DNA of 64,000 nucleotides, filler included, from Sphacelaria rigidula (taxonomy: Eukaryota), in the NCBI GenBank assembly GCA_964200075.2. It is 5 parts of 5 records of this genome, joined end to end, with 100 filler letters (N's around TTAATTAATTAA, not from the genome) between each part and the next. Parts side by side here need not be neighbours in the genome. Positions count along the whole stretch, not along the records: positions 1 to 12,726 come from CAXNAA020003468.1; positions 12,827 to 25,551 come from CAXNAA020003469.1; 3 more parts are not named here. One strand, given 5' to 3'. The position numbers and the translations under genes were made by a program. Each line of letters starts with the position of its first letter. The first letter of the stretch is position 1. Positions 1 through 23,780 of this stretch are shown piece by piece. The notes below the pieces were generated by a model. It did no database searches. It saw only the letters and a program-made list of their open reading frames with translations, and was not told the origin of the DNA.

Positions 1-72
1 TGCTCAAATCACTAAGGCACGCAACAAAAGAGTACGCCCCCCCCCGAGGCCGGCCAGCCCCCCCCCCCCCCC
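1..72 (+). mobile_element. 3' terminus of a poly(C)-tailed LINE (family A)
   Basis: tgctcaaatcactaaggcacgcaacaaaagagtacg followed by a C-run matches the LINE 3' end at 23738-23780 (ggtcaaacgactgaggcaagcaacaaatgagtacg-C8) and at 6846-6890. Confidence 0.85.
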
Positions 73-403
73 AAACCTCTAGATTCTTGGGTTGGCGTGG
101 AGTGGCAACAGCGATGTAAAACAAGCCACCAAATCCTGGACATGAAATGTATAGACTGTCATCGCACCTGTACCATCAACCGCTACTAGACAATAGAAAG
201 TCCCGGATCGACAAACACAATAGACTCACAATAACTTAAGTAACCAAATTTGTTTCCCCCCAGAAATTCACAAAATGGATAAAAACATTATATACCGAAG
301 CTGGCCTTTTTGTAAGTCGTCCGTTTTCCTTTTCTGCGTTTTTCCCATTCCATTTCGTCTTTTTCTTCTTCCTTTTCCTCTTTCTGCACACATTTTGTTT
401 CTC

Positions 404-935
404 GCTACCATAAAACAGCCCGGACGTGGAATATGGAAGCTATCCCTGTCCTTCCTTAAGCCTACCATAACACAGCACGGACATGGACATGGAATATGGA
501 AGCTAATCCTGTTTTTTCTTTAGCCTATCATACACAGCCCGGACATAGACATGGAATAGAAAAGCTAAGCATGCTTTTTCTTCAACCTACCATAACACAG
601 CCCGGACATGGACATGGAATATGGAAGCTAATCCTGCTTTTTCTTTGGCCTATCATACACAGCCCGGACATAGACACGGAATAGAAAAGCTAAGCATGCT
701 TTTTCTTCAACCTTCCATAACACAGCCCGGACACGGACATGGAATATGGAAGCTAATCCTGCTTTTTCTTTAGCCTATCATACACAGCCCGGACATGGAC
801 ATGGAATAGAAAAAGCTAAGCATGCTTTTTCTTCAACCTACCATAACACAGCCCGGACATGGACATGGAATATGGAAGCTAACCCTCCTTTTTCTTCAAC
901 CTACCATGACACAGCCTGGATATAGACGTGAAATA
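404..935 (+). repeat. Tandem array of 62-63 bp units alternating A/B (about 125 bp higher-order period)
   Basis: Unit starts cctaccataa at 461, 586, 711, 837 and 900 and cctatcatac at 524, 649 and 774. All contain cagcccggacat(g/a)gacatggaata. Confidence 0.95.
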
Positions 936-2404
936 GCGAGAAAAAACAGATTTACTTTCCCGTATCAAGACGGGATATAAGCGAGAGTCTCCCCCCCGTA
1001 TCATATCAAAGGTAAGACAAGAATAAAACCGAAACCTAGACAAGTAAGCAGTAACGTGAAGGTTGACCACCTTACATCTCAACCGAGACTACAAAATGCA
1101 TAACAAGTACGGATAAAGCAGGGTCGTCACCCCCTCCATAGTAAATTCACATGGAGGTTGGGGTCTCGTGGTGAGATACTCGTGAAACGTTACCGGTTTC
1201 CAGTGGGCGGCGAAAATCTGGTCAGCCATTTCCTTGAAATTTCCGACATGAGGTGCGAAAGGCGCCCAATGAATGGAAGGGGTAGATAATGCACAACATT
1301 TAAGTCGAGACCTACTGCACTCATGAAACAAACGCCTTACCAATAACCGACCACATGACCTACGAGAAGAAGCACCAAGCGGAATGTAGACCTCTTGAGA
1401 TCTTGAAGAATAGAAGCTGGTGTAAAGTGTGGGGGAATTGTTGGCTAAGCTTTCGGCAGCGAAGGTCTACTCGGTAACGTGAGTGGGGCAGCAACCCATG
1501 CTGAACCGTACACAGCGTGTGAGAAAGTGATGTACGGGACATCCCGATGTGAGGAAGACCATGTGTTATGCAAGCCGTCCTCGAACGTTACACGGTGAAA
1601 ATGACCTCCCTGGAGAAAAGTAACCAGTACAGCAGCGGGGCAAGAAGATGGNNNNNNNNNNGGTTTACCATGAAAATCGCCTGGCGCAAACGTGGGGTAC
1701 TTGTGTCAAAGGTGTTGAACTTGGCTCCATGCTACGAGCCCGTGTTGGAGGCATTATTTAGTTTCGGTGAGCCAGCTAAAGAACTAAAAGGCACCAGACC
1801 CTCAACAAGTACTAGGATTCGGATGTCCCAGTACGTAGACTACATCCCACCAATACACTCGAAATGATTAAGCTGGAGATTATCTCGGAAGAGATCGAGG
1901 GGGAAAAGGTGAGGGAGTGAGAATGGACAAGTAAATAGTGGACTGGTAAAGTACTAGTTGTGTTGGCATTCGGAGGTCGTAGCGATATGGCAAGAAAAGA
2001 GTTAAAAAGGAAATGCACTGGAGTTGGACTATTCTGTTTTGCAAGAGGGAAAGTAGAAAGGAAGGGAGAGCACTTCCGAGTCACGCTAAAACAGAGCGTG
2101 AGCAAGGAGTGGGAAAAGATAGAGACAGCAAGGTGTCGCCATGGGTTAAAAGGGTAGGATGGAGAGTATGCATCGCTATTGGAACAACAAGCCTAGGACA
2201 TAGTCCACTGGTGAACGGAGGGGAAGAGAGGGAGGAACAGGTGAGTACCCGGAAGGGGAAGGGGAGGCGACGTAGCGGCCCGCAGCGAATAGACAAAGAC
2301 CAACACAGAAACGGGAAGAACAATCAAACAAGGAAAAGTGAAAGTAAAGCGACGGAGAGAGAACAGTAGACAACAGGAGTGCAAATGATTCCGAAAGGAA
2401 GTCA

Positions 2405-5400
2405 AGAATAGGGTCGTGTAACGTGTGTAGATTCGTCACAGACAAGCGCAAAAGAATAGATAGAACGCAACAATTAGGTAAACACGACCTAGATATAGTA
2501 GGATCCCAAGAGTCATGGGAGAAAAGGGGGGCGGAAATAGGATACAAAGTTGAAGAGTACGCATGGATAGGGAAAAAGTGGAAGGGACAGAAGCCCAAGA
2601 GCACGGGAGCGGGGGGAGTAGGATTCTTAGTCAAGGAATACCTGTGTGACAGCATAGAAGTGATCGACGACACGAAATTCGACGAGAGTATATGGATAAG
2701 GGTATCTGGAAAGCGGGGAACGAAGGACTTCGTAGAGAACATCTACATGCCCCGAGAATCGAAGAGTAGGGGGAGCGATATACAACGGAGGTTGGGGAGA
2801 TAGCAGCAGATGTACATGAGTATAAAAGGCAAGGAGAAGTGATTCTAGTGAGAGATTTCAATGCAAGGGTAGGAAGCGCAGGTCTACCGGATGCTATCAT
2901 TGGGCAATACGGGGTAGATAAAATAGCACGAATGGAGTAGAAATGCTGGAGTTCCTTGAGCATAACGAGATGAAGATGGTGAACAATAGAGCACACGAGC
3001 CAGAGGCGCAATGGACATGGACTAGAAAATGCAAAGACAAGAAATAACGCTCCTTTCTCGACAAAACAGTGGTTGAGCATGGAAATAGTAAAGAAACGGA
3101 AGTACATGTATGCGCGGAGGACGTGGGAACCACAGATCATTGCCTAATATGAACAGAGAGCCAACAGACGAGAGCTGAAAGAAATAGGCGGGGTAGGAAG
3201 CTGTACCAATGGAGAATCGATAAACTAGATATGGAAGAAGAACCGCAAGAGTTCCAAGGAGAGATTGCCAAGAATGCAGTGACTTTTTATCGAGCTGATG
3301 GCGCGCGTAGGTACACTTAATACCAGAGTAGGAAGAAATCGGGCAGGAGCGATCATAGAAGGATGGGAGCAGTTGGTCAAGGACACAGCGCGTAAAGTCA
3401 TACTTCCTCTGTCTCATAAGTTAGGGTACCTGTGGGCAATGCGTTGTCTGGATACAATAGTGTAGGTGAGGATAGTGTAGTCGGGTTCGTTAGAAACGTA
3501 AAACGAAGAAGAAGCTAGAGGAAAAAGAAAAAAACGGTGCTCTACTCATTTACCTTATATGGGTTAAAATATACCCTATTTTGGCCTATTTTGGGAATAT
3601 TTTTGAGAACGTTTTGAGAATTCTTCAAACATTATCAAAAGCGTCCAAATTTAGTACCTTACCCGCCCACTACACCATTCTAGCGATAGACTCGCCCCCC
3701 AGCACACCTCCACCTCGCAAACGGGGCGCCGAGATATCGGTTGGTGGTTACTACGCAATGGCGACAATGGTCCTCGACACTTTATTTCCCGTAGGAAAGG
3801 CGTGGAATACGGCCATTTTTGGGCCGACTGATTTGTTTTCGGCCGTTCGGCCGCATGGTTCAAGCACCGGCCGAGAAAAATAATCATGTTTTTTACTCGA
3901 AAAACACCGAAGACTTCAACAAAAAAATCGAGAAACAGATCGGACACGGCTGAGGGCCCGTACAAATTTAGGTACCCTGATTAATGAGACAGAGGAAGTA
4001 GGGTGGAAACTGATCGTATGCAACAGAGCAGTGCAATGGTGGGATGAGGAAGTAAAAGAGGCTATAAGAGGAAAGAGAGAGGCCCACGCGAGATGGATGT
4101 CGAGTAAAACTACGGCAGGATGGGAGAAGTATACGAAAGCTCGAAAGAACGTGAAAACGATAGTACAGCAGAAAAAGGAGGAAGTATGGTAAGATGTAGT
4201 GAATGAAACAAATTGAGATTTCGATGGGATGAAACACATGTGGGTAGGGATAAAAGGGATAGCGGAAAACAAGGCAGGAAAGATGGACAAGGGGACAGCC
4301 ACACTCCGGGCACAGAACGGTAAAATGGTCAGTAGTTCGAAGGGGAAGAGAGAAGTGCGAGTCGAGCACTGCCGTAAACTAGGAGCACCAAAAACAACCC
4401 CGGAGTTCGACACGGAATTATACAACGTAATCAACGCGTGGGCAGAGGCAAATGTAGAGACGTCGAAACGGGAGGATAGGGGCTCCAAATAATTGTAGAG
4501 AGAGTTTACCAGAGACGAAGTAAAGGAGTGCGTAGCTAAACTCAAGAACAAAAAGGCAGCAGGGGCAGACGGAATAGTGAATGCTTCCTTGAGTACGGGG
4601 GAGAGGGAATGATCGCTATGATTGTACAACTGGATCTGGGGAAACGAGGACACACCCAAGAGGTGGAGATAAGGAGTAGTCGTCAACCTGTTCAGAAAAG
4701 AAGACAAGGCTGACCCAGGAAATTATAGAGGGATAGCGCTACTGAGCACGGAACGGAAAATATTCTGTAAGATCCTGAACGATAGAGGAGGAGCGATACT
4801 AGAAAAGGAAGTCAAAATCAGCGAGGCACAAGCAGGATTTAGACCAAACCGCAGTTGTGTAGACCATGTGTACACACTAGGCTGACCCAGGATATTATAG
4901 AGGGATAACGCTACTGAGCACGGTGGGGAAAACATTCTGTAAGATTCTGAACGATAGAGTAGGAACATAGCTAGAAAAGGAAGACAAAATCAGCGAGGGG
5001 CAAGCAGGATTTAGATCAAACCGTAGTTGCGTAGACCATGTGTACACACTGGGTAAGAATATTTAGGGTAGGGAAGACACCGGGCTGATAACGTACTGTT
5101 TCTTCCTGGACGTGCAAAAGGCTCATGACACAGTATGGAGAAATGGGTTGAGGAAAAAGTTGTGGGAAGCTGGGTTTAGAGGAAAGATGTGGAGAATGGT
5201 GAAAAAGATTGCAGAATGTGCCAAAAGTGCCATGATGCTAGACGGGGAAATATCGATTTTTTTATACTTTACAAGGAGTTGCACAAGGATGTACGTTATC
5301 ACCCATTTTGTTCAAGTTGTTCATTAATGGCTTCATAATAGCAGTAGAAGCAGCAGACCAAGGGGTTCAGGTGGGTAAAGATATGATATCAGGATTGATG

Positions 5401-6738
5401 CTCGCGGATGATTTTGTGGGGATTTCAGGAACACCAGACGGATTACAGACACAGATAGACAGGGCGCTAGAATACACTAGGAAATGGAGAGTGACAGCGA
5501 ACGTGAACAACTACGCGGTACTTGTCTATAACGAAGATAATAACAATGCGGTACAGTTCAAATGGAAGTGGGGAGAAGAGGAATTGCCGATCGTGGACCA
5601 GTACACATACCTTCGCGTAGAGATCTCATAACACTGTTCTAGGGATGCACACACACAAAGTAATAGAAAAGGGTAAGGCACAGATAGGTAGGATGGACGT
5701 GATCCTCAGAGACTCGCACCTAAACACTAGGATCAAGAAATGTATCCTGATGAACGTGATTGTACCAAAACTGGAATATACAGAAGAGGTATGGGAGGGG
5801 AACGTGAAGTTGGTGGAGAAGTTGGAAACAGTACAGATGGCAGCAGCTAAGAAATTACTTGGATGCTCGAAAACGACGAATAATACAGTTTTGAGAGCAG
5901 AGTTGGGAATGTACTCACTTAAAACAGAGAAATGAGAAAAATGCGATGACAATATAGCTTAAAGAACACGCAGAGAAAGAGATTGCCAGCTATAGTTGAT
6001 AGGGCTGTATGGAGGAAAAGTACGAAGGGGCGGGCTGGAATAAGGTGGGATAAAGAAGTCGAGAAAGGATGGAAGGAGATAAAAGGAAGCCAAGACGAAA
6101 TACTGTCCATATATGAAGGCGCGGGGTACAAGACAAAAGTAAGAGACATGATATAAATAAGGGAAAAAGGAGCGCTCAGACGCGAAGTAGATGAGAAAGA
6201 ACACCTGAAGATATACGGGGGGTTGAGAGAGGGGATAAGAATAAAAGCATATTTGCATGGCCCAATGAGCGCTGCGAAAAATCTGAAACTGCGATTTTGG
6301 ATGGGGGACCTGGATCTGCCAGAAAGAAGAAAGAGATATACCAGTCGTCGAAAAAAAGAGGAGGAATTAGACATACAAAACTGCCTCTGTGGCAAAGCAA
6401 TGGAGACCAGAAGTAATAAAGTGGCAGAATGTGAACTATACAAGGAGAAACGGGACGTGCTAGAGAGGAAAATAGGGGACGTGAACAAAGGTGGCATGAA
6501 ATCGTTTGATGCGTAAGACAGTCAGGAGAAAACGATGATTATACTAGGAGATAGATGGTGGCAACAGACGGCAAAACAGGGCGGGGATAAGATATGCAGA
6601 AGGTTTTTGTGCAATGTATGGAAGGAACGTAATGGGCGCCGGAATGTTGGAGGTGGCTCTATTAGGAGTAGGAACAGTGCTCCGTCTCGAAAGGGATGCG
6701 TGGTCAATGGTCAAACGACGAAGGCAAGCAACACGTGA
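2405..6738 (+). pseudogene. LINE ORF2 (AP endonuclease, reverse transcriptase, zinc-knuckle remnant) with stops and frameshifts
   Basis: APE motifs RIGSCNV, DIVGSQESW, GVGFLV, RDFNARVG and TDHCLI. RT motifs NYRGIALL, QAGFRPNRSCVDH, FLDVQKAHDTVWR and MLADDFV. C-terminal CLCGKAMETRSNKVAEC. Confidence 0.92.
3403..3998. mobile_element. 596-bp Tc1/mariner (Stowaway-like) MITE inserted in LINE ORF2
   Basis: TIR cttcctctgtctcataagttagggtacct / aggtaccctgattaatgagacagaggaag, with TA duplicated at 3401-3402 and 3999-4000. Removing it restores the LINE frame KVIGWKLIV. Confidence 0.93.
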
Positions 6739-7255
6739 GATTCCGCCCCCCCCCACCCCGGCACCACCGCCCCCCACCACGCCGCCCCGACCGCCGTCGC
6801 GGGCGGGCGGNNNNNNNNNNCGTCTCGAAAGGGATGCGTGGTCAATGGTCAAACGACGAAGGCAAGCAACAAATGAGTTCCCCCCCCCCCAAAGCCTGCC
6901 AGTTTAGCGTTCAACAAGGGGAATGAGTCACGGCTGTAAAGAGCTGAAGGTTGTTCTTGCCCTGTGCGCTGCAGTGCCATCCCTCGAAACACACGGACCG
7001 ACCCCTCCGTCCCTCAACAAGTCGACATCATCGATCATTAACCTCAACGCAAAAAAAACATGGTATCGCGTATATCGCCACTCCAAGGAATATCACTTGC
7101 ACCAGTATAATTTTTTCTCGGTATATGGCAAGGAGGGTAATCAACTGCGTCAACGTTCCTCAGCGGAAAGAGGAGTAGCGATGGTCCAAACACTACCTAT
7201 CGACTGTGATTGTGATTTTAGTGAAAACGCCGCGGTTGTGATTTCTCTCATGCAG

Positions 7256-7447
7256 GCAGCACGATGTGTCGGCGCGAGGGGATTGGCGGCTACTCTGTCG
7301 ACCGGTTCAGCAGCGGGGCGAAGTAAGCTATGGGCTTCTTTGATCGACGTGGAACACAAATTTGGCACCCCCGCATCGTTCAAGGAGGTTTCCTTGCGTG
7401 CTTGTGACGACTCCGAGATACCGAACGTCTTCCCCGACATTGCTGAG
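7256..7447 (+). CDS. Exon of an RRP5/PDCD11-like HAT (half-a-TPR) repeat protein
   Basis: cag|...|gtacga boundaries. AARCVGARGLA...RSKLWASLIDVEHKFGTPASFKEVSLRAC resembles the RRP5 C-terminal pattern ARxxAERAL...KLNVWxALLNLExxYG...VFERA (recalled, not aligned by tool). Confidence 0.7.
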
Positions 7448-8254
7448 GTACGAAAAATAATTTGTCGATTAAAAACATGGTGGAAACCATTCAGCCATGC
7501 TTACAACGCCTGGTAGGATCAGATTCACGTTTAAGCTCGGCAATTATTGTCTGTACGGATTCATGTTGTGCTCTTGTGTGCTTTGATGCAGTGTGTGAGT
7601 GCACAACATCAGGCATAGCAAACCTGTGGACAACACTGCCGTCAACGATAGAAAAACCACTTGAGGTAATGCTGCGTCGTTTACTAGCGTCATGCATCTC
7701 TCCATGCCTTGTGAATCCTTGCTAACCTTGAGGAAATCATCAATTCCTTCCCCCCCCCCGTTCCTATCGTTCCTATCGTCGAGAGATGAAACGCATGTCT
7801 CCAGAGTAACAAGCTGCTCATGTCTTCGAAATAATGTTTCGCGTAGGGTCAACATTCCAAAATCTCCGCCCCTGTCTCACCCTCGCTCCGCGCAGTTGCA
7901 TGGTCGCGACGGGGGCAAGACTGATGGATGGTGTGAGAAGTGCGAGTCATTGTTCCGGAGCTGCATGAAAAAAAAGAAATATCGCCACTCCAAAGAGGTC
8001 AGCACACTCAGAAGTGGACGTGCATTTCAGCCAATCTGTCTGTTTTTCCCCGTGTGTTGCTGATGATGGAAACCCGCTGTTCGTACGTCAAGTATGGCAT
8101 GGTTGGAGTTCACTTTCACCGTACAACCGAGATCTCGAAATGCTGGTTCAGCTTGCTTCTTCTTCCTGGCGGTCCAGAAAAACTCAGAAGCAAAGCGCGG
8201 GTGTGGGGATATAACCAAGTATCACCATCATATTGTCTTGATGCTCTGGTAAGG

Positions 8255-8507
8255 ACAATTTCCACCATAGCCACCCCCCCCAAAAAGTGTTTGGTTTGGG
8301 GAGGCAAAATCTACACGTGAATCGAAATTTAAAAAGCCTGGCACATCGAGCAGCTGGGAATTCACACGCTTGGGTTCGTTCTCGCCGATGTCGCCCATGT
8401 GAGGCGCTTTATGCAGGCTAAAACCAAAAATCAGGCGCGGTATGACCATATTCCTCGTGACAGTTTTGGGCTGGTTTTGGAGGGGGGACTATCGTAAAAA
8501 GACTGTA
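8255..8507. mobile_element. About 250-bp MITE (Tc1/mariner-like end ...ctgTA)
   Basis: Imperfect TIR acaatttccaccatagccacccccccaaaa versus ttttggaggggggactatcgtaaaaagactgt. A second copy lies at 25388-25551. Confidence 0.7.
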
Positions 8508-8662
8508 CGAATGCCATGTTTTCGAACATTCACACCAGGGTCTCTCAGCCTCACAGCCTTTCATCCTTACAGTTTTTCATTCTTGCAAATATATATTTTT
8601 GCTATTCAGCGCTGTCAGCGGTTGAAGCACCCAGAATACAGTTCCATTTTTGCAATGTTGAT

Positions 8663-8730
8663 GTGTCCACGGCTGGATCCCTGGGGGTCGGTTAAAGTGC
8701 GACAATCAAATAAAAAAAAAAACCAATCTA
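8663..8730 (+). mobile_element. 5'-truncated retroposon end with a (CAAT)n-type tail
   Basis: ccacggctggatccctgggggtcggttaaagtgcgacaatcaa recurs at about 27062-27130 and 50998-51055, each followed by caat repeats. Confidence 0.7.
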
Positions 8731-8967
8731 TGTCGGAACAGATTAAGCTGTACATCACATAGGCAGGTGCAATCAGGGCACTTCGGGTGAACTAGAAACG
8801 CCGGCGTATGATGGGGCTCATCTCCTCTTGTGCATACTATTTCCCCACAAGTGTGTTCGTTGTGCGAGCATGGGACATGGAGAGAAACTTTGGGCACCAC
8901 TTGCATTCTTCTGCGGTTACCGCCCTTGCTACTGTGTTGATACATTCCGACTATCCCACGTTACATG

Positions 8968-9290
8968 TGTAGGGAATTTGTGCTTGGGAGAACGGGGGAT
9001 GTAATCATGATCTTGCATGCCATAGTCATCAGACCATTGAACTCGCATCCCTACAAGGCCGGGACAGAGCACGCGCGGTTTCAGCCGGACGAGGCTCGCA
9101 GTGAATCACCAAGCGCGAAGCGCCGTGGTGTGCTCGGCGAGTCGCATGAAGGGTGAGCTGCATCCTGCTGGGATTATTCGGCCCGAAGCGTACTAATTAT
9201 CTTGCATTTGGATGACAGCCTCCAATGAGCGACTTCGTTTTCTGGTGTCGCTACTTCCAGAGACGCCACGGCTCAATCACTGTCTCATGG
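8968..9290 (+). repeat. Interspersed repeat of about 320 bp, class unknown
   Basis: Collinear homolog at 24518-24825 on another scaffold (shared gcatgccatagtcat...agcgcgaagcgccgtg...gagtcgcatgaagggtgagctgcatc). Confidence 0.85.
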
Positions 9291-9889
9291 CTGCAGAAGG
9301 GGCGAGGCGGCGCTTGAACGATTGATTTTCACGAGTCTGAGTGGGGTGCTGTGCTGGTTTCTTCGACCAGGTGTGGATTGCGATTCAACTGTCTCGGCTG
9401 CACAGAGGGTACGCTGTCGGTGCCTGGGAAATGCTGCAACTTAGCTTGCACTACCTTCCCGGCGAGGACCACGTTTTCGTCATCTCAAGGTAACAAGTAC
9501 GATATAATATTTTCAAGGTTGTGTTCTGCTTAGATATGCTGAGAAAGGGTACCCGCGGAAGTGGGAGATTTTTTATCGGCATACCAAATCTCATGGTGCT
9601 GAAATGTGTAGCGAACACTCTCGGGTATGGTCCGGCAGGGTATCGAGCCTTGTTCCGAACAGGAAACAATGCGATACGGTTCGGAAGGGTATATGCCGAT
9701 ACCTGTAATAACACCTCTTTTTTACACTTCTGTTAATATCCGAATTTCAGCCCGTGTACCCTCCAGAGCACAACCTTGATATGAATATGCCCTGCAGACG
9801 GTTTCACTATGCAGGTTAAAGGGTTACTTTGAAAAAAGCGGCATCCAGTCCGCGGCAAGCGGTGTTGACATGGGCATCTACCCTACATG

Positions 9890-11465
9890 AACGTTGCAAG
9901 AGTAGATCGAGTAGAGTATGTACTTTTGAGTACTCGAGTAAAATAGTATTTACTCTACTCGACGTTTGAGTAAGTCGATCACGGCCTCAAATACTCTACT
10001 CAATTTTTTAGTAGGTCGAGTACGGCCTCACATACTCTACTCAAATTTTGAGTAGGTCGGGTACGACCTCAAATACTCTACTCAAATACTGAGTATGACC
10101 TCAATACTCTACTCAAATTTGGAGAAGGTCGAGTACGGTTTCAAATACTCTACTCAAATTTTGAGTAGGTTGAGTATGGTCTCAAGTACTCTACTCAAAT
10201 TTTGAGTAGGTTGAGTATGGTGTCAAATACTCTACTCAAACATTGAGTAAGTACTCCCAGTAATACTTGAGTGTAGAGTATCACCCGAGTATGACCTCAA
10301 AACTCTCCTCAAATTTCGAGTAGATTGAGTAGGATCTCAAATACTCTACTCAAATTTTGAGTAGATACTGGGTATGATCTCAAATACTCTGCTCAAATTT
10401 TGAGTAGGTTGAGTACGACCTCAAATACTCTACTTAAATATTGAGTAAGCACTCTCAGTAGCACTTGAGTATAGAGTACCCTTTGGCTATGGTGAGTACC
10501 CCTGACAGTCGGCGACTTCGTGACGTCACTTCACAGACTATGTTGAATGCATGAGCGAACGATGACCATCAATAAGATGGCCGGCGTTACATCACAGCCA
10601 ATAAGGAGTGTGAGCGAATGAAGGCCATAAAAAAATAAAAAAGCGTGCAGGTGAACGAACCTACTTGCCCCCGCGCCCCATCTCACCAGCCCCCACCCAC
10701 GGCAGTTAATACTCGATACCTCGCAACGCCTTCAATATCACTTTCAGTACAGGGCGCTAGTCATCATCATCGAGTAATCGAGTAGACGAGTAGTCGAGTA
10801 GGTATGATCAAAATGAGCGACTCTACTGGCCACGGTTCGACTCTACTGGCCACGGTTCGACAAGACAGTTTGACCTTGAATCAACACTACTCATGGGTGG
10901 GCAACTGTACGAATACCTCGGTATTTCCTCTACCCGAGTTTGAGTATCTTGCGTACGAACTTGAATGTTGAATTTGAAGTTATACGTTTTCGGTACATCG
11001 GATCCGGCCTCAGATACTCCACTCAAGTTTTGAGTAGGCCGAGTACGGCCTCACATAGTCTGCTCAAATTTTGAGTAGGTCGAGTACGACCTCAAATACT
11101 CTACTCAAATTTTGAGTAGGTTGAGTATGGTCTCAAATACTCTACTCAGATTTCGGGTACGTTGAGTACGGCTTCCAATACTCACACTCAAATTTCGAGT
11201 AGATCGAGTACGACCTCAATACTCTACTCAAACATTAAGTGAGCACTATCAGGTATACTCGAGTATAGAGTATCACTTGAGTATGACCTCAATACTATAC
11301 TCAAATTTCGAGTAGACTGAGTATGATCTCAAATACTCTCCTCGAATAATTGAGTAGGTTGAGTACGACCTCAAATACTCTGCTCAAACTTCGAGTACTG
11401 AAGGTATGACTCTTAAAAAAAACTGAGTATTGAGTATACTCTACTCGACCTACCCTTGGAACGTT
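9890..11465. mobile_element. Non-autonomous TIR element with two internal arrays of a 41-bp palindrome-containing unit
   Basis: Left end aacgttgcaagagtagatcgagtagagtat is the inverse of right end atactctactcgacctacccttggaacgtt. Arrays of ctcaaatactctactcaaattttgagtaggtcgagtacgac lie at about 9985-10480 and 11010-11400. Confidence 0.85.
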
Positions 11466-12870: not shown

Positions 12871-13719
12871 ATCCTAGCAGGGGGAAGGGGGACACCGAAG
12901 TAGCAACAAACCCCGTCCTCCGTCGTCCCACTTTGCCTGATTCTTCTCCCCCAAAAAAACGATTATGCTTTTTACTCCACCGATGCAATACATTGAGATC
13001 GCTCTCACGATCGGTTGTGCCAGCTGAGTCCTGTAGTTTGACCTGACGAAATTAAGGTCAAGTGTACCGCGTGCAGTCTTCAAACCAGCGATAGTTGTCA
13101 TTATCTAGCAAATTAAGGAGGCGTTTAATCGAAAAAATATCAAGAGAAAGACGTGGCCGCAGCAACAGTGTGCGCCCTCGAGCGGTTCTAACTCTACAAG
13201 TAGAGAAGGAATAATGTCTGGGCCGATACGAGAGCTGAACCGCTTTTTCTACCAAGATTTGGTTCGGATTTTCGCCAAAACCACAAATACCCCAAGAGCG
13301 TTATGTTTTCTTGCTCCCAATCTTATGTCCCGATCCTCCTGTTTTACAGATGACTCTGATCCGGGGTCGAAACTGCAATGAAGATGCATCGATATCCTGA
13401 TATTTCTCATTTGATCCATGATACGCTGTAGCCTCTACTCCATATAGGTAAATGCATCTGAACCGTCTGAATACATGGTTTACACTTTCTCGTGGATCAA
13501 GGATTTTTGTCCTCAGCAGGCGCTGTGAGAATTATCCTGTCCTCTACATGCACCTCAGGTGTTGAGTAGGTCAGTAACTACATTTTGGGATATGACCCCG
13601 TACCCACGAAATACGCATCTATTTTTTCGATTGAATTGGAGTGTTTCATAAGTGAGCATACAGTTTTGTTCTATGGGCTCGACGATCCGAGCTTCCGCAT
13701 CTTCGTGCACGTTTGTCAG

Positions 13720-13923
13720 GCGTTTTCGATATCTCCACACGCGGCACCGCTGGCGGGGACAGAAAGTACCTCTCCTCTGCCCAGTAACGCCGCTAAAGAA
13801 GGGGTTGCTGGCAAGACCGGCGCTAAAAAGGGATCGGCGGGGACGGGGTTGGGGGGAGCGGAGAATGGCAATATGCCGTGGAGGATGGTTGTCGAAGCTG
13901 CGTTGGATTCAGACAACATGAAG
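13720..13923 (+). CDS. Probable exon of an unidentified protein
   Basis: tgtcag acceptor and a GC-rich 204-nt open frame AFSISPHAAPL...PWRMVVEAALDSDNMK. The best donor is aag|GCgagt. Confidence 0.5.
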
Positions 13924-16543
13924 GCGAGTCGTGTGGTTCTCTGAAGTTCTGAAAAGTTATGGTCTGAAGGTTTCGGCGTTAAAAAGGCGTAGCTGTTGTC
14001 ATGAACGGATCGTCAGAGGGAAAACATACAGTCCTACCATTTTTTTGTTGCAATCGAGGTTCTGCTTTTGCTTTCTGCTTCCAGCAATATATACATGTAT
14101 GTATAGATATATTCGAGAACGTTGTGTGTGATCACCTTCCGAGCGCGTGCCACTAGCAAATGATCCATACCGTGTATTTCGTTTGTTCAATAACTAGGAC
14201 TTAAAAGATCGATAAGTGCTCTCCTGAATGTATTGATTGGTTTGGAAGATCAAGAGTGCATAAAACCCTTGGGGATCTGAACCTCAAAATCATTAGAACT
14301 GTTTTGCAATCTGGATGCGTGTTTTATTTTGTTGCATTTTCAACTCGCCACCCTTCCCAGGGGCGAACCTACGATCTCAAAGGGATCAAACCATTCATCC
14401 CCCGGTACGTGCCTTGCACTGCATTATTGAACATTGAACCTCGAACCGGCACACCCGCAGCCCGTCCACTTTCGGCGAATCACTTGAGCCCAATTGTTCA
14501 TACATTCTCGATTTTTGCTTTCCAACTATGTGGGAAGCGCGAATGTTGTCTGGAGGTAGGAGGTTGCTCAGCCCCATACTATCCATCGACCTCCAAACAG
14601 TATTTGGAGCGAGAGTGCGTACTGACATGAGGATGCTAGAAGCGAGGGACACTCATCACTATGATGTTGAAGTTCACATGAGTTGACCTCTACATTTACA
14701 CGTGCTTGCCCGGGTCTGGGTAGCGAGAATATTTTCAAGAGCCTTATTTTTCGGCATTTGAGTGCTTTTCGGTGGTGGTTTATTATGGAATTCACAGTTA
14801 AGCAGTAACGACCAACGTTCGAACAAGCATAAATCATGTGATGCCGATCTAGCTAGATCTTGAGTTAAAACTAAAATCCTTGGGTGCGGAATAGTTGTAT
14901 TACAGTCCATGTATGTCAATACCGGTGTTTGTATCTTGATCTTGAGGCTTGAATCCTCCAACAGTAAAAGATCCCGACTCCTTCGCAGTCACAGGTTTCA
15001 TCTCCAGGGTCAGCAGAATCTACACAAAAGACCCACGCTTGAAGTAGAAATGGGCTCACTGTTAACGTGCTGGGGACGTTAGCACAGTAGCATTTACCAC
15101 TTGGTAGTTACTTGATTTCAGTGTGGACAAGAGTCTAAAAAATCCGGATCTTAATAATCAGGGTGCTGTGCTCCTAGCGTGCGCAGAACGCGTTTTTACT
15201 CAGAAGTTTACTCACCTAGCAGAAGTTGTTGACACATTAATATATCTCGACGACATCGTGTTTTGGTTCATGGAGCACAACGACGAATGTCTCTTCGTTC
15301 CATCAACCACTACTTTCAATATTTATTTCATCATAAGACCACAACGACCGTGTTTCCTCGTCGTCAACAGGTCCCTGATCGCTTCACGTCTCGGCTCCCC
15401 TACTACTACAGACACACGCCGGAGGATTTTCCGCACTTCGTCCCTTCCCCCATGTCATCCGGTTCCGCAGGCTCCACAGGCCAACGATCGTCTCTCCGAC
15501 GAAGGTATGCAAGAGACCACTGCGCATATAGCTCGGCCTCCACTCCGTCCGTGTACTTTATACGCTCATGAATACGCAATTTTATATTGACTTCAGTATA
15601 AGCGCATATTTGTTTCACAAGTACGGTTCTAAGCACATACGGAGCAGCGACTTGCATACAACGCGCCATTCCGGCAAGCCTTCCGGGACCAATATCTGTC
15701 CTCAGGCCGGATGTGAAGCCGACTTATAAAGCAATGGGATCGGGGCAGAGAAAAACAAATAGTTTCCCCACGGGAAATGTCTGCTAAGGATGAGGACACC
15801 GGAGCCTCGTGAAGCACCGCTGCACATACATTCCAAGTTCTCATATCGAAACGGCCCCAATCCTCTGGGCGTGTGCTTATGCATTTACGATCTGTACGTC
15901 TTTTCTTCTTATATTATATGATATTGAACATTAAACGCTGACGACAACGCTGTCAATAGATTGAACGTTCAAGGGAACGCTCCGGGCTGAACGGGCGAAT
16001 GGCGCGTGGACAATGATGTGCGGTACTTGAGAATAGGCTGATGATCACAATCTTCAACTCATGGCAGACCTCATAAAGGTTATCATTCTGCACGTGATAA
16101 AACGGAAATACTGGGTGTGTGATTTTTGAAGCCCCCGAATGTCCCTCGCAAATAGTGTACGCTATCATCTGACATTTTACACAGAGGCTATCGTAAATCT
16201 GCACTCTAATAGTCAGCCGCACACAACTTGTCTGCGCTTTTTGCTGGGGACATATAGTGATGTATTACACGTTTTATTCGGATCGTACTCTAGTGCGCTA
16301 TACTTAGAACGTATCATATGAAGTACCATGCTGAAATGTACCTGATACCAGACCATGATTTTATACAGTTATGATGCACTATACTTAAACTGTTCTTGTC
16401 TCGAATGACCTCGGCGGTATCTTTCAATTCAAAACGTTGGAAACCACCGTCAACACCCGTCCGAACTAATCGACGAGATCTTCGGACGAGTTGAACACGC
16501 ACCACACACTATGCTATAATTTAAGAACGAAAATGCTCAGCCA

Positions 16544-16701
16544 CCGCGCCCCGGTGGTTCAAGTCAAAATGATCCAACTGACACATTTAGGGTAGACAGA
16601 ACGCGGGTTCGGTTGCCTCCATGTGCGTTTCTTTTTTTCTCCAAAGTACAGTGTCTGATTTCCGTCCGCCCTTGAAAGCGTAGGGCCGTTGTTGTTGTTA
16701 C

Positions 16702-16735
<34 letters not shown>

Positions 16736-16736
16736 G
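16544..16736 (+). mobile_element. tRNA-derived SINE (family B) with a (GTT)n tail
   Basis: ccgcgccccggtggttcaag head, gggttcggttgcc B-box-like motif, ccttgaaagcgtagggcc, then (gtt)n. Confidence 0.7.
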
Positions 16737-16920
16737 CCGTTCCGATATCTGCGGAGTACTCCGTACTGGGCATCTGATGCGAACGCCTTCCGTGAACACG
16801 GGCTAGGTACCCAATATAAGGCTTAGGAAAATGAAAGAAGAAAAAAACAGGACCCAGAGAAATTCGCACGCAGACGTGACCAGCAAAAACAGTCTGTTCG
16901 GCTGAGTTTGTTCGACGAAG

Positions 16921-17040
16921 GTTGGCGCGGTGCACGAGTGTGGATCCAATTCGCGACACCGAAATGTAAGGCGCATACCGGGGAAGAGCTGTATCTGATA
17001 CCTAGAGAGCACGGGTTCGTCTCGAGGAAAGGGAAGGGTT
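16921..17040 (-). repeat. Interspersed repeat of about 120 bp
   Basis: Reverse complement (ccgtgctctc...catttcggtgtcgcgaattggatccacactcgtgcaccgcg) matches 23781-23890 and 40750-40862. Confidence 0.75.
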
Positions 17041-17857
17041 GAAAATGTGATGAAAAACAAACAAAATTGGTACTGTATTGCAATGTATGTAGAGATCGCA
17101 TAGCATGCATGTTTTGTATACTGCTGTACCTGATTGCAGTAGGGCATACTATCGACGGAATTTATAGCAATAAAACGATAGTGTGCTCGCCAACACTACT
17201 GTACGCGAGACATGAATACGCCACCGACAGAATGGTACTCGGAAGTCGACTTGCAGTGATGCACGACGGGGTGTTATTTTTTTGCGGCACATGACGTTTT
17301 GGGATAAACATGTATATATATATATATACATATATGTACATATGTGTGTGTTCAATGTACCATGCAAGCAGTACATTCATCTATACTGGACGAAACACTC
17401 CGATCGTCGACGGCACACCGAAGCCCAGCATGTGTCGACCCATGGCTGAATATTTGTATCCTCTCGCACGTGTACTTAATTTTTTCTGCCTATTTCTGTA
17501 CGAATTGGATATCAAATGCGGTGATGATTGTCGTATGCTTTGGCTCATGGGAAAAGGCAGTACTACGCCTTCATTAACTAGCTATGGACTTCAAAGCGCG
17601 TGCTCCGCGTGCAGCGTTTTGGGTATTGAAATACGGCACGATCATGGAATTTATGGCGAGGAAAAAAGAAGGACGTTCCATTGTTTGTTTTTTACGTCCA
17701 CAAGTTTTCTTTTTTTCTTCATGTCCCTTGGCAGAACTGTTGTTTCTTCGAGTTCTTCCCCTTGAGGATTCGCAATCTGTAGTTGTGGACGTGCACGTGT
17801 TCAAAGGTCGAAAAACTCTTGATCGATTGCTTCGAATCGACTGCTGTACATTAACTG

Positions 17858-17858
<1 letters not shown>

Positions 17859-17899
<41 letters not shown>

Positions 17900-18286
17900 G
17901 TGTGTTTGCGTGTGTTTGCGTGTGTATGTTGTCATCCCATCTATTCTGGGCGTCATTCTACACCCTTCGGTATATGTGGACGCACCAACCGGGGTCACAC
18001 AGGAGGAAGATCAGCACAGGATTCTTTTTCATTTTGTATTTGTTTCAGTTCTCCATCTTCCTTCTGCGATGCTAGCCTTATTTTTTCATCGAGAGAGGGG
18101 TTCAGCACTCCCTTTCCGTCGTCGACCGTGAAGTCGAATGCTGTGTACCCACGACATAGTCTCTCTCCACTGTTGGGCATGGTGTGAGAAACAATCCCAA
18201 ATCGTGTAACTGCACCGAGATTCGAACCCACGACCCAACCGTCAGAAGGTGTCGAGGTTACCAACTGAGCCACCGGGGCGACCGGT
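17859..18286 (-). mobile_element. tRNA-derived SINE (family A) with a (CA)n tail
   Basis: Head ccggtcgccccggtggctcagttggt...cttctgacgg...gggttcgaatctcgg. The body of about 350 bp is shared with the 43257 and 55297 copies. (TG)n at 17859-17925. Confidence 0.92.
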
Positions 18287-18302
18287 CACCCTACAAACCA
18301 AT

Positions 18303-18568
18303 CACACGTCGGACAGATCATGATCCGTCTGAAATGACCAATCTAATAGAAAAGTAAGACTCTTGGACCCGTTGGTCGAAACACACTAAATATGTGACCG
18401 CGGAGTCAGAAAAAGTCGAAGCGCAACCTTTGCGCTACTCGGCGTGCTTGGCGTCCGGCGCTCTGTGGAGAAAGCATGGGAAAGGGGGGCCAAATGACCC
18501 AGATTATGATCCGGATCAGTACACTGAGAGGAAAGAATTTTCAGATAGATCATGATCTGTGGGGTGTG
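18303..18568. mobile_element. About 266-bp MITE with CACAC termini
   Basis: cacacgtcggacagatcatgatccgtctgaaa versus tttcagatagatcatgatctgtggggtgtg, an imperfect TIR of about 31 bp. Confidence 0.7.
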
Positions 18569-20011
18569 TTGAATCAATCCAGCGGTGATCGCGAGAGACG
18601 TATGTTCAAAGTGAATACGCACACTCGCTGAAGGAAGCTCGAGGAACAGGAAATAACAAAGGAAGCAAACTGATGTACTGATGTAGACGCCGAGATATAA
18701 ACGGAATAACGACCCCGAGAAAATCCTCGATAGATACCTGCCAGCGCTTCAGGTAGGAGGCACCACAAGAACCGAGGAACTTGCTCCGACTCCATCAACC
18801 CGACGGAAGGCGTGTTGTGCTCTTTTGCAAACTCGCAGCGACAGGAAAAGGCAAAAGGCTGCAGTGCAGTTGCATTCTTTTCGTCGTGCACATAAGCATA
18901 TGTCCCGTGCCTGTGCAACGCACAAGATTATTCGAAAGTATCCCGCGAAATTCTCTGCAGAGCACACGAAGAATAACCCCAAATATCCGTGTCGTCCATT
19001 CATGAGAGCACCTTCGTGATTGGACGTTTTCGTATTCTTGCGTTATGCGCAGTCATAGGTAAAGTTCATGCGCGTAATCGTATATGTGTATATTAGACAT
19101 GTGTTCTGGTACTGCGTTGCGTGCTAACCACCAAGAATTTTATGGGCTGTATCCATCAGCCTATGCGTACGTGTGCAACGTACAGCGCATGGCGACATAT
19201 TGTGCCACCCACGTGACGCTCCACAGGCCATTACCGTGAGCTTGTGTGCGTATGCAACCTAGATCGTTTTATTACGTTGTGTGCTGCAAACGAAGCGTTT
19301 CGCGCGCGTGCTTTTCGATTACCGTTACGGGCGAATGGAACTTGTATACCAAAAATTTGGTGTAAGTTGTATGCTACAAAATCATGACTATTGCATAATG
19401 CGTTACATCCGGCGTACTAAGCCGTCCTCCCCTCCCCCCCCTCCCTCTCCCGTCCCTCCCACCCACATATATTTGCCGGAGTTCGGATCCTCAACCTTCC
19501 GCCCAGACTTGTTTAAGTCGTACCGTTTAGACCGTCGGGGCGGGGTATTACGGCATGAATAAGGGGAACGGTATGTCTACGAGAGTAGGGGACAAACAGG
19601 GTACGACTCACCTCCCTGCAGGAATGGAAGTTGATGACATCACAGCGGCACGGCTTGTACGAAGAGGTCATGGTCCATACACATACTTTTCGACATGTTG
19701 ACTGTTCGATGCCCCATTCCAGTAGATCGTGCCACCACCAGTCACTATCCAGACGGGGGAGGGAGGGTAGAATTCGACCTCCGAGCATACCGCAAAATTT
19801 ACTCAAAACGCTGTTCAAACTTGTATATTTGGGCTACTTGCCTTTGCACAACCATCACTCATTATATCGACTAACTGAATCAAAATGGGTGATGTCGCTC
19901 CTGCCGCCACCCGCCCCCAATCGTTTTTCGCGCAAGCGCCGTGGCCGATCTTCCCGCACCCCCCGTGTTTTTGAATACTCTTCCTCATGATGCAGCAGCG
20001 GCTACTTGCAG

Positions 20012-20215
20012 GATGTCGAGAGAGGCGACACAAACGCAGGGGATTCGGTTGTCGAGAGCGTGGGAAGGTTCACGGTAATTCCTGCGTCCGGTGATTCGAA
20101 CGGGCAGCATGTTGAGGGCCGAGAACACGGGGATCGTGAGGAGAGCGAGGGGGGGCAAGGCAGGGGGGAGATGGAGAGCCTCCGCTGGTGGTTCGAGATT
20201 GTCGGAGCTGCCGAG
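20012..20215 (+). CDS. Probable exon of an unidentified protein (possibly the same gene as 13720-13923)
   Basis: ttgcag|...gag|gtgtgt boundaries and a 204-nt open frame DVERGD...ESLRWWFEIVGAAE. Confidence 0.55.
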
Positions 20216-20322
20216 GTGTGTTTGCCGTGGCGATCATCGTAGATGGTCATGTAGCCGATGCACTGGACCAACTGTTTGAGTTTGAAGGGAGACATTACAC
20301 TTTTTTGCCGTGTACGCGCATA

Positions 20323-20326
<4 letters not shown>

Positions 20327-20376
<50 letters not shown>
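20327..20376. repeat. (CT)n microsatellite
   Basis: Direct reading. Confidence 0.95.
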
Positions 20377-20380
<4 letters not shown>

Positions 20381-21639
20381 CCTCTGTCTTTCTCTCTGTG
20401 GATTAATCCAAACAACAAAAAACTTACCGCAAGAATGAACGCAGGGCTCATGTAGTGTTGCAAACGTAGCTGCTAGTATAAGTATGCGCGTATGTTTCGC
20501 TATACAATATCAAGTATTGAGTGTGGTGTAAGTACCAGAGTATATGCGTGCCCAAACACACCCACAGACATGTGCGTCGGGACATTGTGCCCCCCACATA
20601 GGTCCAGGAATGTTTCTCTGAAATGAATGTTTCGTTACGTCGGGTTTTCGTCCGCTCGGTCACCGGAGTATCGTCATGCTCCAAGGAAGGGGGTAGCGCA
20701 CCAAATCTGCATTATCTTCCTTCTCACCGGTATTCACTGCAAGCGCCACACACAAGTACATGCAGTCACGTCGTCGTACCACACATATATGACCCATTAG
20801 GCTACTGCTTCCCATTCCTGTGAGTGGGTAGGTTCATTAGGTTCTGCATGGTTTGTCACGATATGGGTGTATGAAGTTAAGTTTGAGAACTGCCCAAGTC
20901 CAGCGTTGACTTCTTGCAATATATTTTGGTGCTATTAATATCAATAATATCAATCATATCAATCATATCAAGCATATCAATAATATACAGTTCATATAAT
21001 ATATTAACACTATTCAAATCACAAACAGCATTAATATTATGAATATTATGAATGTTGTATTAATAATTATTTTTGTTATCATTATTACTGCTAGTATTGC
21101 CATTGCAATTATCATTGTTATTGTTACAATTACCATTACTATCATGACTATTATGGTCATCTTTATTATGTTGTATTTTATGAAGATCGCCAGAACCCCG
21201 CTTACGCGGTGATTTCACCCCACAACTCAGCACATGTTTCGCCAGTGCACCTGTCCATCGACTGGGCCCAGCGTAGCTAACCATCGAGTAGGTGTGGTGC
21301 TTCCACGCTTTGAGCTCGTTGCGGAAACTTTAGTTCGGTGGCCTGAATGAACTTCCCATTTTTTCAGTCCTTGTGGCGTTTCCAACACATTCAGGTACTT
21401 TTACGCGAACCGATCGAGAATTTCCGTGATTGGTTCTTCTACCTCTTCTTCTCATTATCATTACCACTACTTTTATTGTCATCATGATTGTTATTATTAC
21501 TATCATTGCCATTGTCATTGTCACCATCATCATTATTATTTTTTGTTTACTGCTGCCAATATCACTATTATCATCATCATCATCACTAGTACACACCCTG
21601 GACAATACAATATGTTTTCAATATATATCAGTCGATCAT

Positions 21640-21950
21640 ATTGGAAATTTGCGATATATTGGCGGCGTCGTATATGTCGGTACCCTTGGACTGCACACGT
21701 ATTGCGCGCCTAGTATATGTTGATGTCGTAGGGCTGCATACATATTGCCCGCGCAACATGTATTGGTACCGTGGGGTTGAACGCATATTGTCCCATCAAT
21801 ATATACATTGGGGCAGTGTGGGCGACGGCATATTGCACGACCAATATATATTAGGGTCGCATCGGTGACAACATATTGACCGGTCAATATATATCGGGTC
21901 TGCGTCGGTGCCAATGTATTGGCCGGTCAGTATATATCGGACGATATAAG
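21640..21950. repeat. Degenerate minisatellite of about 40 bp
   Basis: Recurrent (c)atattg...caatatata...gggtc units, adjacent to the ATC/ATT low-complexity tract at 21450-21585. Confidence 0.65.
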
Positions 21951-21996
21951 TATGGTGTACACTTTGAGAAAGATCCACACGGGGTGGATGCCGGAG

Positions 21997-23780
21997 CCGT
22001 AGGGAAAACATTTTGTAACATTCTGAACGATAGCGTTGCACCGGTGCTAGGAAACAAAACAAAACAGCGAGGGGCAAGCGGGCGTAGACCAAACCGTAGT
22101 TTCGTATACCCTGTGTACACACTAGGTAAGAGTATTCAAGGTAGGAAAGACGCCGGGTTGACAACGTACTATTTCTTTCTGGGTGTACGAAATGCCTATG
22201 GCACAGTGTGGAGGAATGGGCTGTGGAAAAGGTTGTGGGAACCTGGAATCAAAGGGAATATATGGAGAATGGTGAAGAAGATGACAAAATGTGCCAAAAG
22301 TGATACTTTGAAATTTTACAAGGAATTACATAAAAATGCACGCTATCAGCCACTCTATTCAAGCTATTTATTAATGACCTGATATGAGAAATAGAAGCAA
22401 CAAAGCAAGGAGTCAAGGTGGGTAAAAATATGGTATCAGGACTGATGTTCGCGGATGATTTTGTGTAGATATCAGAGACATGAGAAGGATTGCAGACATA
22501 GAGAAGGCGCTAGAATACACCAGGAAATGGAAAGTGACAGCGAACGTTAACAAATGCGCAGTACTCGTGTGTAGCGAAGATAAGAAAAATCCGGTAGAGT
22601 TCAAGTGGAAGTGGCGCGAAGAGGAACTGCCGATCGTAGACCAGTATTCATACCTCGGCGTAGAGACATAAAAAACTGTTCTTGGGATGCACACATGAAA
22701 AAAGTGATGAAAAAGGATAAGGTACAGATAGGCAGGATGGACGTGATCCTCAGAGACTTGCACCTGGATACTAGGATGAAGATATGTATCCTGTTGAACG
22801 TGATTGTACCAGAGCTGGAATATGAAGGAGGATATGGAAGGGGAATGTGAAGATATTGGAAAGAGTACAGATGGCAGCAGCTAAGAAGATACTTGGATGC
22901 TCGAAAACGATGAGTAATACAGCTTTGAGAGTAGAGATGGAAATGTACCCACTGAAAACAGAGACATGAGAAAATTGAGATGACAATATAGCGTAAAGAA
23001 CATGCAGAGTAAGAGATTGCCAGCCATAGTTGATAGGGCTGTACGGAAGAAAGGTACGAAAGAGCAGGCTGGAATACGGTGGGATGGAGAAGTCGAGACA
23101 GTATGGAAGGAGATAGAAGGAAACCAAGACGAAATACTGTCCATAGGTGAAGACGCGGGGTACAAGATATAGCAAGAGACATGAAAATAAGGAGGGAAAA
23201 AGAAATGCTCAGATACAACGCAGACGAGGAAGAACACCTGAAGATATACGGCGGGTTGAGAGGGGGGATAGGGATGATCGGATATTTGCATGGCTCAATG
23301 GACACGCCGAACAAATTGAAACTGCGATTTCGGGTGGGGGACCTGGACCTGCCAGAAAGGAGAAAGAGATCTACCAGTGGTCGAGAGGAGGAGGCAGTAG
23401 ATGCACAGAATTGCCCCTAAGGCATGCCATTAGAGAGCAGAAGTCATATAGTGGCAGAATGTGAACTATACAAGGAGGAACGGGACGAGCTAGAGGAGGA
23501 AATGCGGGACGTGAACGAAGGTGGCATGCAATCATTTGATGCATTAGATAGTAAGGAGAAGGCGATGGCTATACTGCGCGACAGATGGTGACCACAGACG
23601 GCGAAATAGGACGGGGATAAGTTATGTAAGAGATTTTGTGTAGTGTATGGAAGAAGCGCGATGAGCATCGAAATGTTGGAGGTGACACTAGTAGGAGTAG
23701 GAACGGTGCTCCGTCTCGAAAGGGATGCGTGGTCAACGGTCAAACGACTGAGGCAAGCAACAAATGAGTACGCCCCCCCC
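21997..23780 (+). mobile_element. 5'-truncated degenerate copy of the family A LINE, ending in poly(C)
   Basis: Collinear with 4920-6745 (MFADDFV, ALEYTRKWKVTANVN, LKLRFRVGDLDLPERRKR, ESRSHIVAEC). Ends aaatgagtacg-C8. Confidence 0.95.

Follow-up and report, generated by a model that had tools for sequence, protein, structure and literature searches.

The stretch of DNA described here, referred to below as the window, comprises 64,000 nucleotides (nt) from the genome of Sphacelaria rigidula (assembly GCA_964200075.2), given as five parts of five records joined end to end with 100 filler letters between each part and the next. On its plus strand lie three copies, here called A, B and C, of a long interspersed nuclear element (LINE) whose open reading frame (ORF) stops a few nucleotides before a run of C. 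At all three 3' ends (1-72, 6683-6890 and 23700-23780) the sequence reads ...GCAAGCAACAAA TGA GTACG followed by the C-run, with slight decay in copies A and B; given with a longer upstream stretch, the end shared by copies A, B and C is ...GGCAAGCAACAAA TGA GTACG and then the C-run. In copy C, AAA TGA occupies 23762-23767, GTACG 23768-23772 and C8 23773-23780. Copy A (1-72, plus strand), the remainder of which lies outside the window, contributes the last 36 nt of the element, including GTACG (32-36) and a stop codon mutated to AGA (29-31), after which come C9 (37-45), 12 other bases and C15 (58-72). The first-pass annotation of this DNA had placed all three ends correctly, but what it gave as a single end at 6700-6890 resolves into two tail units of copy B (6683-6754 and 6821-6890) with a C-rich stretch and a gap of 10 N between them. 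The first unit (6683-6810, plus strand) consists of a decayed end at 6683-6745, with TGA at 6736-6738, and of C9 at 6746-6754, from which interrupted C-rich sequence continues into the gap at 6811-6820. The second (6821-6890, plus strand) begins directly after the gap and closes with TGA (6874-6876), GTT and C11 (6880-6890); it is 94.4% like 6683-6753 and constitutes a head-to-tail repeat of the terminal module described below. An 18-nt motif taken from this end has four matches in the window at three mismatches or fewer, where 0.08 would be expected, and none of 100 shuffles has as many.

In a six-frame reading, the plus strand of 1-7000 and 21900-23800 yields many ORF pieces with LINE motifs and no long open frame, and the sense strand is purine-rich, with GC skew and AT skew each at +0.26 to +0.31 in 2001-6000 and 22001-24000. 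Among the ORF pieces of the window, Pfam matches to the reverse transcriptase domain RVT_1 (PF00078) fall at 4673-4885 (E 7.4e-05) and 5242-5631 (E 1.8e-07). Used as a query, a reverse transcriptase piece of 129 amino acids (aa) retrieved full-length proteins of 1328-1360 aa that carry PF03372, PF14529 and PF00078; the nearest named proteins in that search, and the only close named ones, are gene models of Ectocarpus sp. CCAP 1310/34, and the remoter named matches of the LINE protein, at 24-28% identity, are proteins of fish and ctenophores that have not been characterised. The reference protein used here, P0007 (1360 aa), has precomputed Pfam assignments to PF03372, PF14529 and PF00078, and a second protein, P0008, to PF03372. 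By tblastn, residues 1-1359 of P0007 align with 1909-6870 in copy B and residues 754-1360 with 21996-23764 in copy C, so that the match reaches the very last residue of the protein at 23764 and residue 1359 at 6870. A direct Pfam search of the decayed window pieces gave no endonuclease match; in the tblastn alignment the endonuclease region of P0007 (residues 133-461) matches 2285-3287. Both P0007 and P0008 end in ...KASNK, and an ASNK C-terminus is present in 5 of the 30 proteins found with the reverse transcriptase piece, one of them an Ectocarpus model.

In an intact relative, L006, the frame runs without interruption for 1382 codons, shows 88% identity with P0007 across residues 1-1360 and is followed by TGA GTACG C13; intact copies therefore share the end of the decayed ones. 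This one open frame spans residues 1-1360 of P0007 and is thus a single endonuclease-reverse transcriptase (EN-RT) ORF. Reverse transcriptase and endonuclease in the same ORF, together with 5'-truncated copies that have a common 3' end and no terminal repeats (copy C and the external locus L007), identify the element as a LINE of the apurinic/apyrimidinic endonuclease (APE) type. It is about 5.5-6.8 kb long, and its one long ORF encodes an N-terminal domain, the APE endonuclease, the reverse transcriptase and a C-terminal Cys/His knuckle. Copy B (1112-6890, plus strand) is near full length and decayed, with ORF remnants from 1909 to 6876 that contain frameshifts and stops, and copy C (21942-23780, plus strand) is truncated at its 5' side, with clear homology from 21999 and decayed sequence back to about 21942. 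The window copies are old, being 75-80% identical to one another and to L006 (80.5% between copies C and B), and copy A is 91% identical to L006 across 45 nt.

The same end recurs outside the window. Loci were collected with an exact 25-nt anchor situated 35 nt upstream of the run, a scan that is blind to sequence past the stop codon and that returned one locus in genome contigs and three in metagenome contigs; a protein-based scan returned one more. At all five of these external loci (L001-L004 and L007) the ORF ends in TGA, 3-5 nt follow (GTACG, CTACG or GTA), and a C-run (C13; C8; C11; C2-T-C7; C9-T-C8) gives way to unrelated flanking sequence. None of the five includes the 5' boundary of a full-length copy; the intact L006 is held on one of the contigs recovered in this way. 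Logan contigs of three DNA sequencing runs, which come from at least two studies, and of one possible RNA run were also mapped to 21700-24100 at 80% likeness. Between 54,623 and 101,608 contigs per DNA run match this interval, with a depth that climbs towards the 3' end, and 821, 887 and 494 contigs in the three runs have loose ends behind 23780, the consensus of which reads 10-17 more C and then diverse sequence (agreement 0.39-0.45). Contigs of the possible RNA run (X6), whose RNA status is only guessed, carry the element and C-run ends as well, and nothing on expression is drawn from them. An A-rich tail or a conserved 3' untranslated region (UTR) past the C-run was looked for in the five external loci and in the contigs of the three DNA runs, and neither was seen. 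Because the copies diverge past it, the C-run is terminal, the element's own end and not an internal feature. The first-pass annotation had proposed a C-homopolymer tail, with the stop codon about 5 nt before the run and no poly(A), and the three window ends, the five external loci with their divergent flanks and the three DNA runs all bear this out.

Each of the three gaps of 9 or 10 N in the window (6811-6820, 24624-24633 and 42499-42507) adjoins a C-run or a tail unit. The assembly seems to break at poly(C) tracts, which makes its tail lengths lower bounds. These gaps make assembled run lengths unreliable and are what could be said for regarding the C-runs as sequencing or assembly artefacts at homopolymers, an explanation that we find hardly credible, since five other assemblies show the same end, as do contigs of the three DNA runs, which stem from two or more studies, and a curated library for which a near-complete Ectocarpus assembly served as the basis (PMC12477816).

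The part of the element immediately before the C-run stands apart from the rest. This terminal module, of approximately 67-72 nt (23706-23772 in copy C, plus strand), is coding throughout except for GTACG, and three properties meet in it: no part of the element is better conserved, the arrays are built from it, and non-autonomous elements share it. Between L006 and copy C, the last 70 nt reach 96% identity, where the other 25 windows of the comparison average 74.8% (maximum 83); between L006 and copy B the value is 91%, against a mean of 77.4% (maximum 87); and between copy C and the decayed first end of copy B it is 87%, against a mean of 80.3% (maximum 90), so that in this last comparison the end is surpassed elsewhere. 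Searched with a profile of the last 100 nt, the window has six matching places, two of which, 9072-9004 and 24623-24552 (both minus strand), match only from position 34 of the profile.

These two places belong to a family of non-autonomous elements with a head unrelated to the LINE and a final stretch of about 67-72 nt in common with it. The first member, N-a (24536-24820, minus strand), is about 300 nt long including the 10-N gap at 24624-24633 and ends in ...ATGAGTACA C4 TTCT C5; its last 70 nt or so (24614-24546) resemble the terminal module of the LINE from the same boundary. The second copy, N-b (9000-9290, minus strand), has its module at 9072-9004 and ends in ...ATGATTACAT C5. The homology between N-a and N-b seems to run some 15 nt past their C-rich ends (24536-24520 against 9000-8985, both minus strand), which does not fit two independent insertions, and the pair may lie inside a larger repeat.

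The boundary that delimits the shared part of the non-autonomous elements is also that of head-to-tail arrays of module plus C-run. The three DNA runs have 86, 112 and 40 contigs, respectively, with a joint leading from 23777-23780 back to 23706-23709, poly(C) stands immediately ahead of 23707 in 315 contigs of run X2, runs of up to about 26 C precede array units, and in hundreds of contigs module units are bordered by C-runs both before and after. Since the module is common to non-autonomous elements and repeated in such arrays, the depth of contigs on 21700-24100 jumps 5-8-fold over the last two bins. Anatomy, terminal C-run, conservation of the module, its sharing with other elements and its arrays are all seen directly, and the last three point to the final 70 nt or so as a functional unit. 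The first-pass annotation had suggested a 3' recognition signal that extends into the coding sequence, and this agrees with the conservation of the module, with its presence in a non-autonomous element and with the module plus C-run arrays.

The arrays could have arisen by repeated insertion into older tails or, instead, all at once, if the reverse transcriptase jumped templates or started anew on the tail, or else by later unequal crossing-over. Such an origin would suit the 94.4% likeness of the two units of copy B and the very common joints, in 40-112 contigs per DNA run, at which the module follows the C-run directly or after a few letters. However, the module is highly conserved in all copies, so likeness between neighbours says little; the spacer between units varies among contigs; and the two units of a second family with a similar build (42425-42650, described below) are only about 80% alike by eye. 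We therefore regard an origin of the arrays other than by repeated insertion as rather unlikely.

On this evidence it is likely, in our judgement, that the copies represent a brown-algal RTE-X-type LINE with a (C)n tail 5 nt after the stop codon, which would integrate by G/C-primed target-primed reverse transcription (TPRT) with older tails as preferred targets. The RNA of the element would then carry the C-run as its own sequence, copied from DNA, unlike an added poly(A); no general enzyme that adds a C-run is known, so the tail would have to come from a template or be restored by the reverse transcriptase. The LINE protein would recognise the last 70 nt or so of its own coding sequence together with the C-run, and the endonuclease would nick the target at a C:G run or next to one. 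The oligo(G) 3' end released by the nick would pair with the templated oligo(C) tail and prime reverse transcription. The intact ORF is poor in C on its sense strand (13.6% C, with one C-run of at least 4 in 4077 nt), from which we infer that the tail would be the sole good partner on the RNA for an oligo(G) primer. The expected outcome is a C-run at every 3' junction, C-rich target site duplications (TSDs) and a preference for earlier tails as targets, and this preference would in turn generate head-to-tail clusters and terminal-module arrays, with non-autonomous elements riding on the same terminal module.

The window is rich in possible targets. Overlapping matches to C8 number 109, against 1.5 expected, and long C:G runs of up to C24 and C26 occur at 53778-53838 (minus), 56340-56355 (plus), 48973-48992 (minus), 48676-48693 (minus) and 62436-62457 (plus). 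The 18 of 23 C-runs of at least 8 that have no LINE tail before them may be the tails of other RTE-X families or of riders. Besides the arrays and a similarly built second family at 42425-42650, which both speak for targeting, several individual cases suggest insertion at C-runs. N-a is flanked by C-run plus GTAA on both sides, with C9-AT-C6-GTAA upstream (the C9-AT-C6 run lying at 24859-24843) and ...C5-GTAAAA downstream. The tail of copy A is followed by AAACCT and that of copy B by AAAGCCT, and copy B may start right after the tail of copy A. The C8 of copy C coincides exactly with the internal C-run of a repeat, here repeat R, and 277 contigs of run X3 match from 23773 onward with other sequence upstream. 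The preference for C tracts that the first-pass annotation had also entertained is supported mainly by the 'C-rich' TSDs noted in print for Ectocarpus RTE-X (PMC12477816); in our own data the support is indirect and consists of suggestive cases.

Repeat R itself consists of a T-run, GATTGTCGCACTTTAAC, C5-8 and then (A/G)GGGxTCCAGCCGTGG, and is abundant in public runs. Its copies in the window lie at 8713-8660 (minus), at about 51045-50990 (minus) and at 23773-23902 (plus), the first two carrying C5 and C7. A likeness of the 5' flank of copy C to repeat R was considered and dropped, the flank being decayed LINE sequence.

Several results weigh against this reading of the element as a C-tailed LINE that is primed at, and aimed at, C:G runs. 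The C8 at the junction of copy C is no longer than the C5-C8 native to repeat R and could be wholly target-derived, and a LINE tail lies upstream of only 5 of the 23 C-runs of at least 8 in the window. Neither of the two 5'-truncated copies inspected (copy C and L007) has a C-run at its 5' junction; the search for a TSD around copy C scored 17, against 18.1 +/- 3.3 for shuffles; no 5' end of a full-length copy could be defined; and no 3' end of the element RNA was seen. The module folds no more stably than its shuffles (minimum free energy, z -0.53), and among seven nearly invariant sequences a compensatory change is seen at a single one of the 15 predicted pairs. Membership in RTE-X, finally, is drawn from the agreement between the published family descriptions and the window family and from Ectocarpus models whose ORF ends in the same way, not from an alignment or a tree. 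No empty sites of the LINE were seen, which speaks against targeting, and Rfam gave no match in 1-25000.

The first two of these points are also the best case for a different account, in which the C-run is target DNA only: the endonuclease would cut beside existing C:G runs, reverse transcription would start at ...GTACG, and the RNA would have no C tail. Targets are plentiful, as the 18 runs of at least 8 without a LINE tail before them illustrate. Against it, the junction runs are often long, with 10-17 C beyond the 8 of copy C and about 26 C before array units, and non-autonomous elements and arrays keep module and C-run together. A purely target-derived run further predicts equal flanking on the 5' and 3' sides, yet both truncated copies lack a C-run at the 5' side, and the published consensus sequences carry '(C)n 3'' (PMC12477816). 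We judge this account to be improbable and prefer the C-tailed LINE with priming by G/C pairing.

A bolder form of the preferred reading, which seems possible to us and is offered tentatively, would make the last 70 nt or so of the ORF and the C-run a self-sufficient retrotransposition module. Pairing of G-run and C-run would set both target and priming, and tails, as favoured targets, would build module-only arrays and head-to-tail clusters and would seed many C:G tracts. If true, this would provide a minimal, experimentally tractable system of LINE 3' recognition with homopolymer-guided integration and would go beyond the published table note discussed below.

Further features of the copies and of the window complete the picture. 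The 5' UTR of copy B is homologous to that of L006 from 1112 onward, and the 5' end of the copy lies somewhere in 73-422. Tandem repeats of 63/125 bp, with 8.2 copies of the 63-bp unit, occupy 422-936 (plus strand) in the 5' region of this copy; similar repeats open the 5' region of L006, and those at 422-936 are probably a monomer-type 5' UTR and may serve as a monomer-type LINE promoter region. Within copy B, about 600 nt at 3403-4010 remain unaligned and have no counterpart in P0007 or L006, probably representing a later insertion, and the reverse transcriptase region contains a 172-bp tandem duplication (4704-4881 / 4876-5053). Directly upstream of the decayed 5' end of copy C is a 43-bp minisatellite with at least five units (21650-21945).

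Elsewhere in the window, a second family at 42425-42650 (minus strand) is built like a LINE tail, with two units of about 57 nt, the first followed by C11-G-C12-A-C12 and a 9-N gap and the second by C18; compared with the last 100 nt of the LINE it shows no similarity above shuffles (z 2.4 or less). Reverse transcriptase remnants at 33010-33885 (plus) and 51635-52132 (minus) are 25-30% identical to the LINE protein by tblastn, one of them with an RVT_1 match, and belong to different retroelements. Of the 121 window ORFs of at least 110 aa, the 73 outside the LINE copies were searched with Pfam and yielded one further reverse transcriptase remnant, at 51551-51952 (minus), and two weak matches. 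A host gene at 63046-63999 was considered and rejected, the long open frame there not looking coding.

A curated library of Ectocarpus repeats (PMC12477816; Genome Biol 2025) turns out to list close counterparts of this element in its supplementary file 1, although the first-pass annotation knew of no described family with such an end. There, RTEX-1_Ec32 is annotated 'single EN-RT ORF; (C)n 3'' and RTEX-2_Ec32 (5582 bp) '(C)n termini/TSD', and the TSD column reads 'C-rich' for all RTE-X entries. The remaining Ectocarpus LINEs in that file end in (CAA)n (RTE) or (CA)n (CRE), and the best blastp matches given for the RTE-X families are RTEX-4_NV_pol and RTEX-1_BF_pol. In its Table 1, LINE/RTE-X accounts for 16,418 copies and 3.41% of the Ectocarpus genome. 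The string 'c-rich' occurs 0 times in the main text of the paper, the passages of which that were available to us mention no C tail. Saccharina also has an RTEX-1 (PMC4421812), and the RTE-X passages of PMC5753468 and PMC10294476 are silent on tails. A literature search returned no paper discussing a poly-C-tailed LINE, although 'poly(C)' as printed is not searchable and this is weak evidence of absence; in the portions of the literature available to us, the supplementary table of PMC12477816 is the sole mention of one that we found. The kind of element, its C tail, the C-rich TSDs and the tandem habit are thus already in print, as table notes only. To these notes the present analysis adds that the stop codon precedes the tail by 5 nt, that the last 70 nt or so are conserved at the nucleotide level and have a discrete boundary, how extensive the module arrays are in public reads, and that the sense strand is poor in C.

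The LINE of the window resembles RTEX-1_Ec32 and RTEX-2_Ec32, as they are tabulated in PMC12477816, in its single EN-RT ORF, its (C)n 3' end, its size (listed as 5.5-5.9 kb, against about 5.5-6.8 kb here) and its very high copy number; the 'C-rich' TSD is a property of theirs, and on a 5-nt 3' UTR the table is silent. The Ectocarpus models P0012 and P0017 carry the ORF end of the window LINE. P0012 (1927 aa) has the C-terminus ...TTASNK, and P0017 reads ...KACKTEEYVPP, in which VPP would be the frame continuing into the C-run. These two models, like P0001 and P0045 of the same genome (Ectocarpus sp. CCAP 1310/34), contain LINE fragments fused to other domains and look like gene models contaminated by transposable element (TE) sequence; a poly-Gly stretch in P0001 may represent a G-run. 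The non-autonomous family of the window has its counterparts in RTEX-N1_Ec32 (604-607 bp), annotated '60 bp 3' end 83% RTEX-1_Ec32/RTEX-2_Ec32' and 'can be present in tandem', and RTEX-N2_Ec32 (188 bp), with which it shares an unrelated head, the last 60-100 nt of a LINE and the tandem habit, the C-rich TSD again being theirs; it differs in length, at about 300 nt (PMC12477816).

In brown algae no TE families are more abundant than RTE-X elements with their riders, and a poly(C) tail, as opposed to poly(A) or an A-containing repeat, is rare among LINEs. Several LINEs that insert into simple repeats, namely Kibi, Koshi, Dong, Waldo and Mino, belong to other clades. These repeat-targeting APE LINEs choose (TC)n, (TTC)n, (TAA)n, (ACAY)n and (AC)n, respectively, and their tail repeat equals their target repeat, a match that points to base pairing between tail and nicked target during priming, as is proposed here; in contrast to the element of the window, their repeats are 2-4 nt long, and no C homopolymer is reported for the five groups in the portions of that work available to us (PMC3812793). 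LINEs of the stringent type have a protein that is specific for a particular 3' tail RNA, and short interspersed nuclear elements share this tail (PMC4176376). The conserved 3' module shared by an autonomous element and its non-autonomous riders is a likeness to that system, but with a 3' UTR of only 5 nt the module here lies inside the ORF, and no stable or covarying stem-loop was found in it. A 3' recognition signal would here sit within coding sequence. Like L1-type LINEs, finally, the element has a homopolymer tail, pairing with a complementary homopolymer at the nick being a feature of L1 (PMC11014359). The poly(A) of L1 is added after transcription, whereas the C-run described here would be part of the element's own sequence, and homopolymer pairing at the nick would then be a process not tied to polyadenylation.

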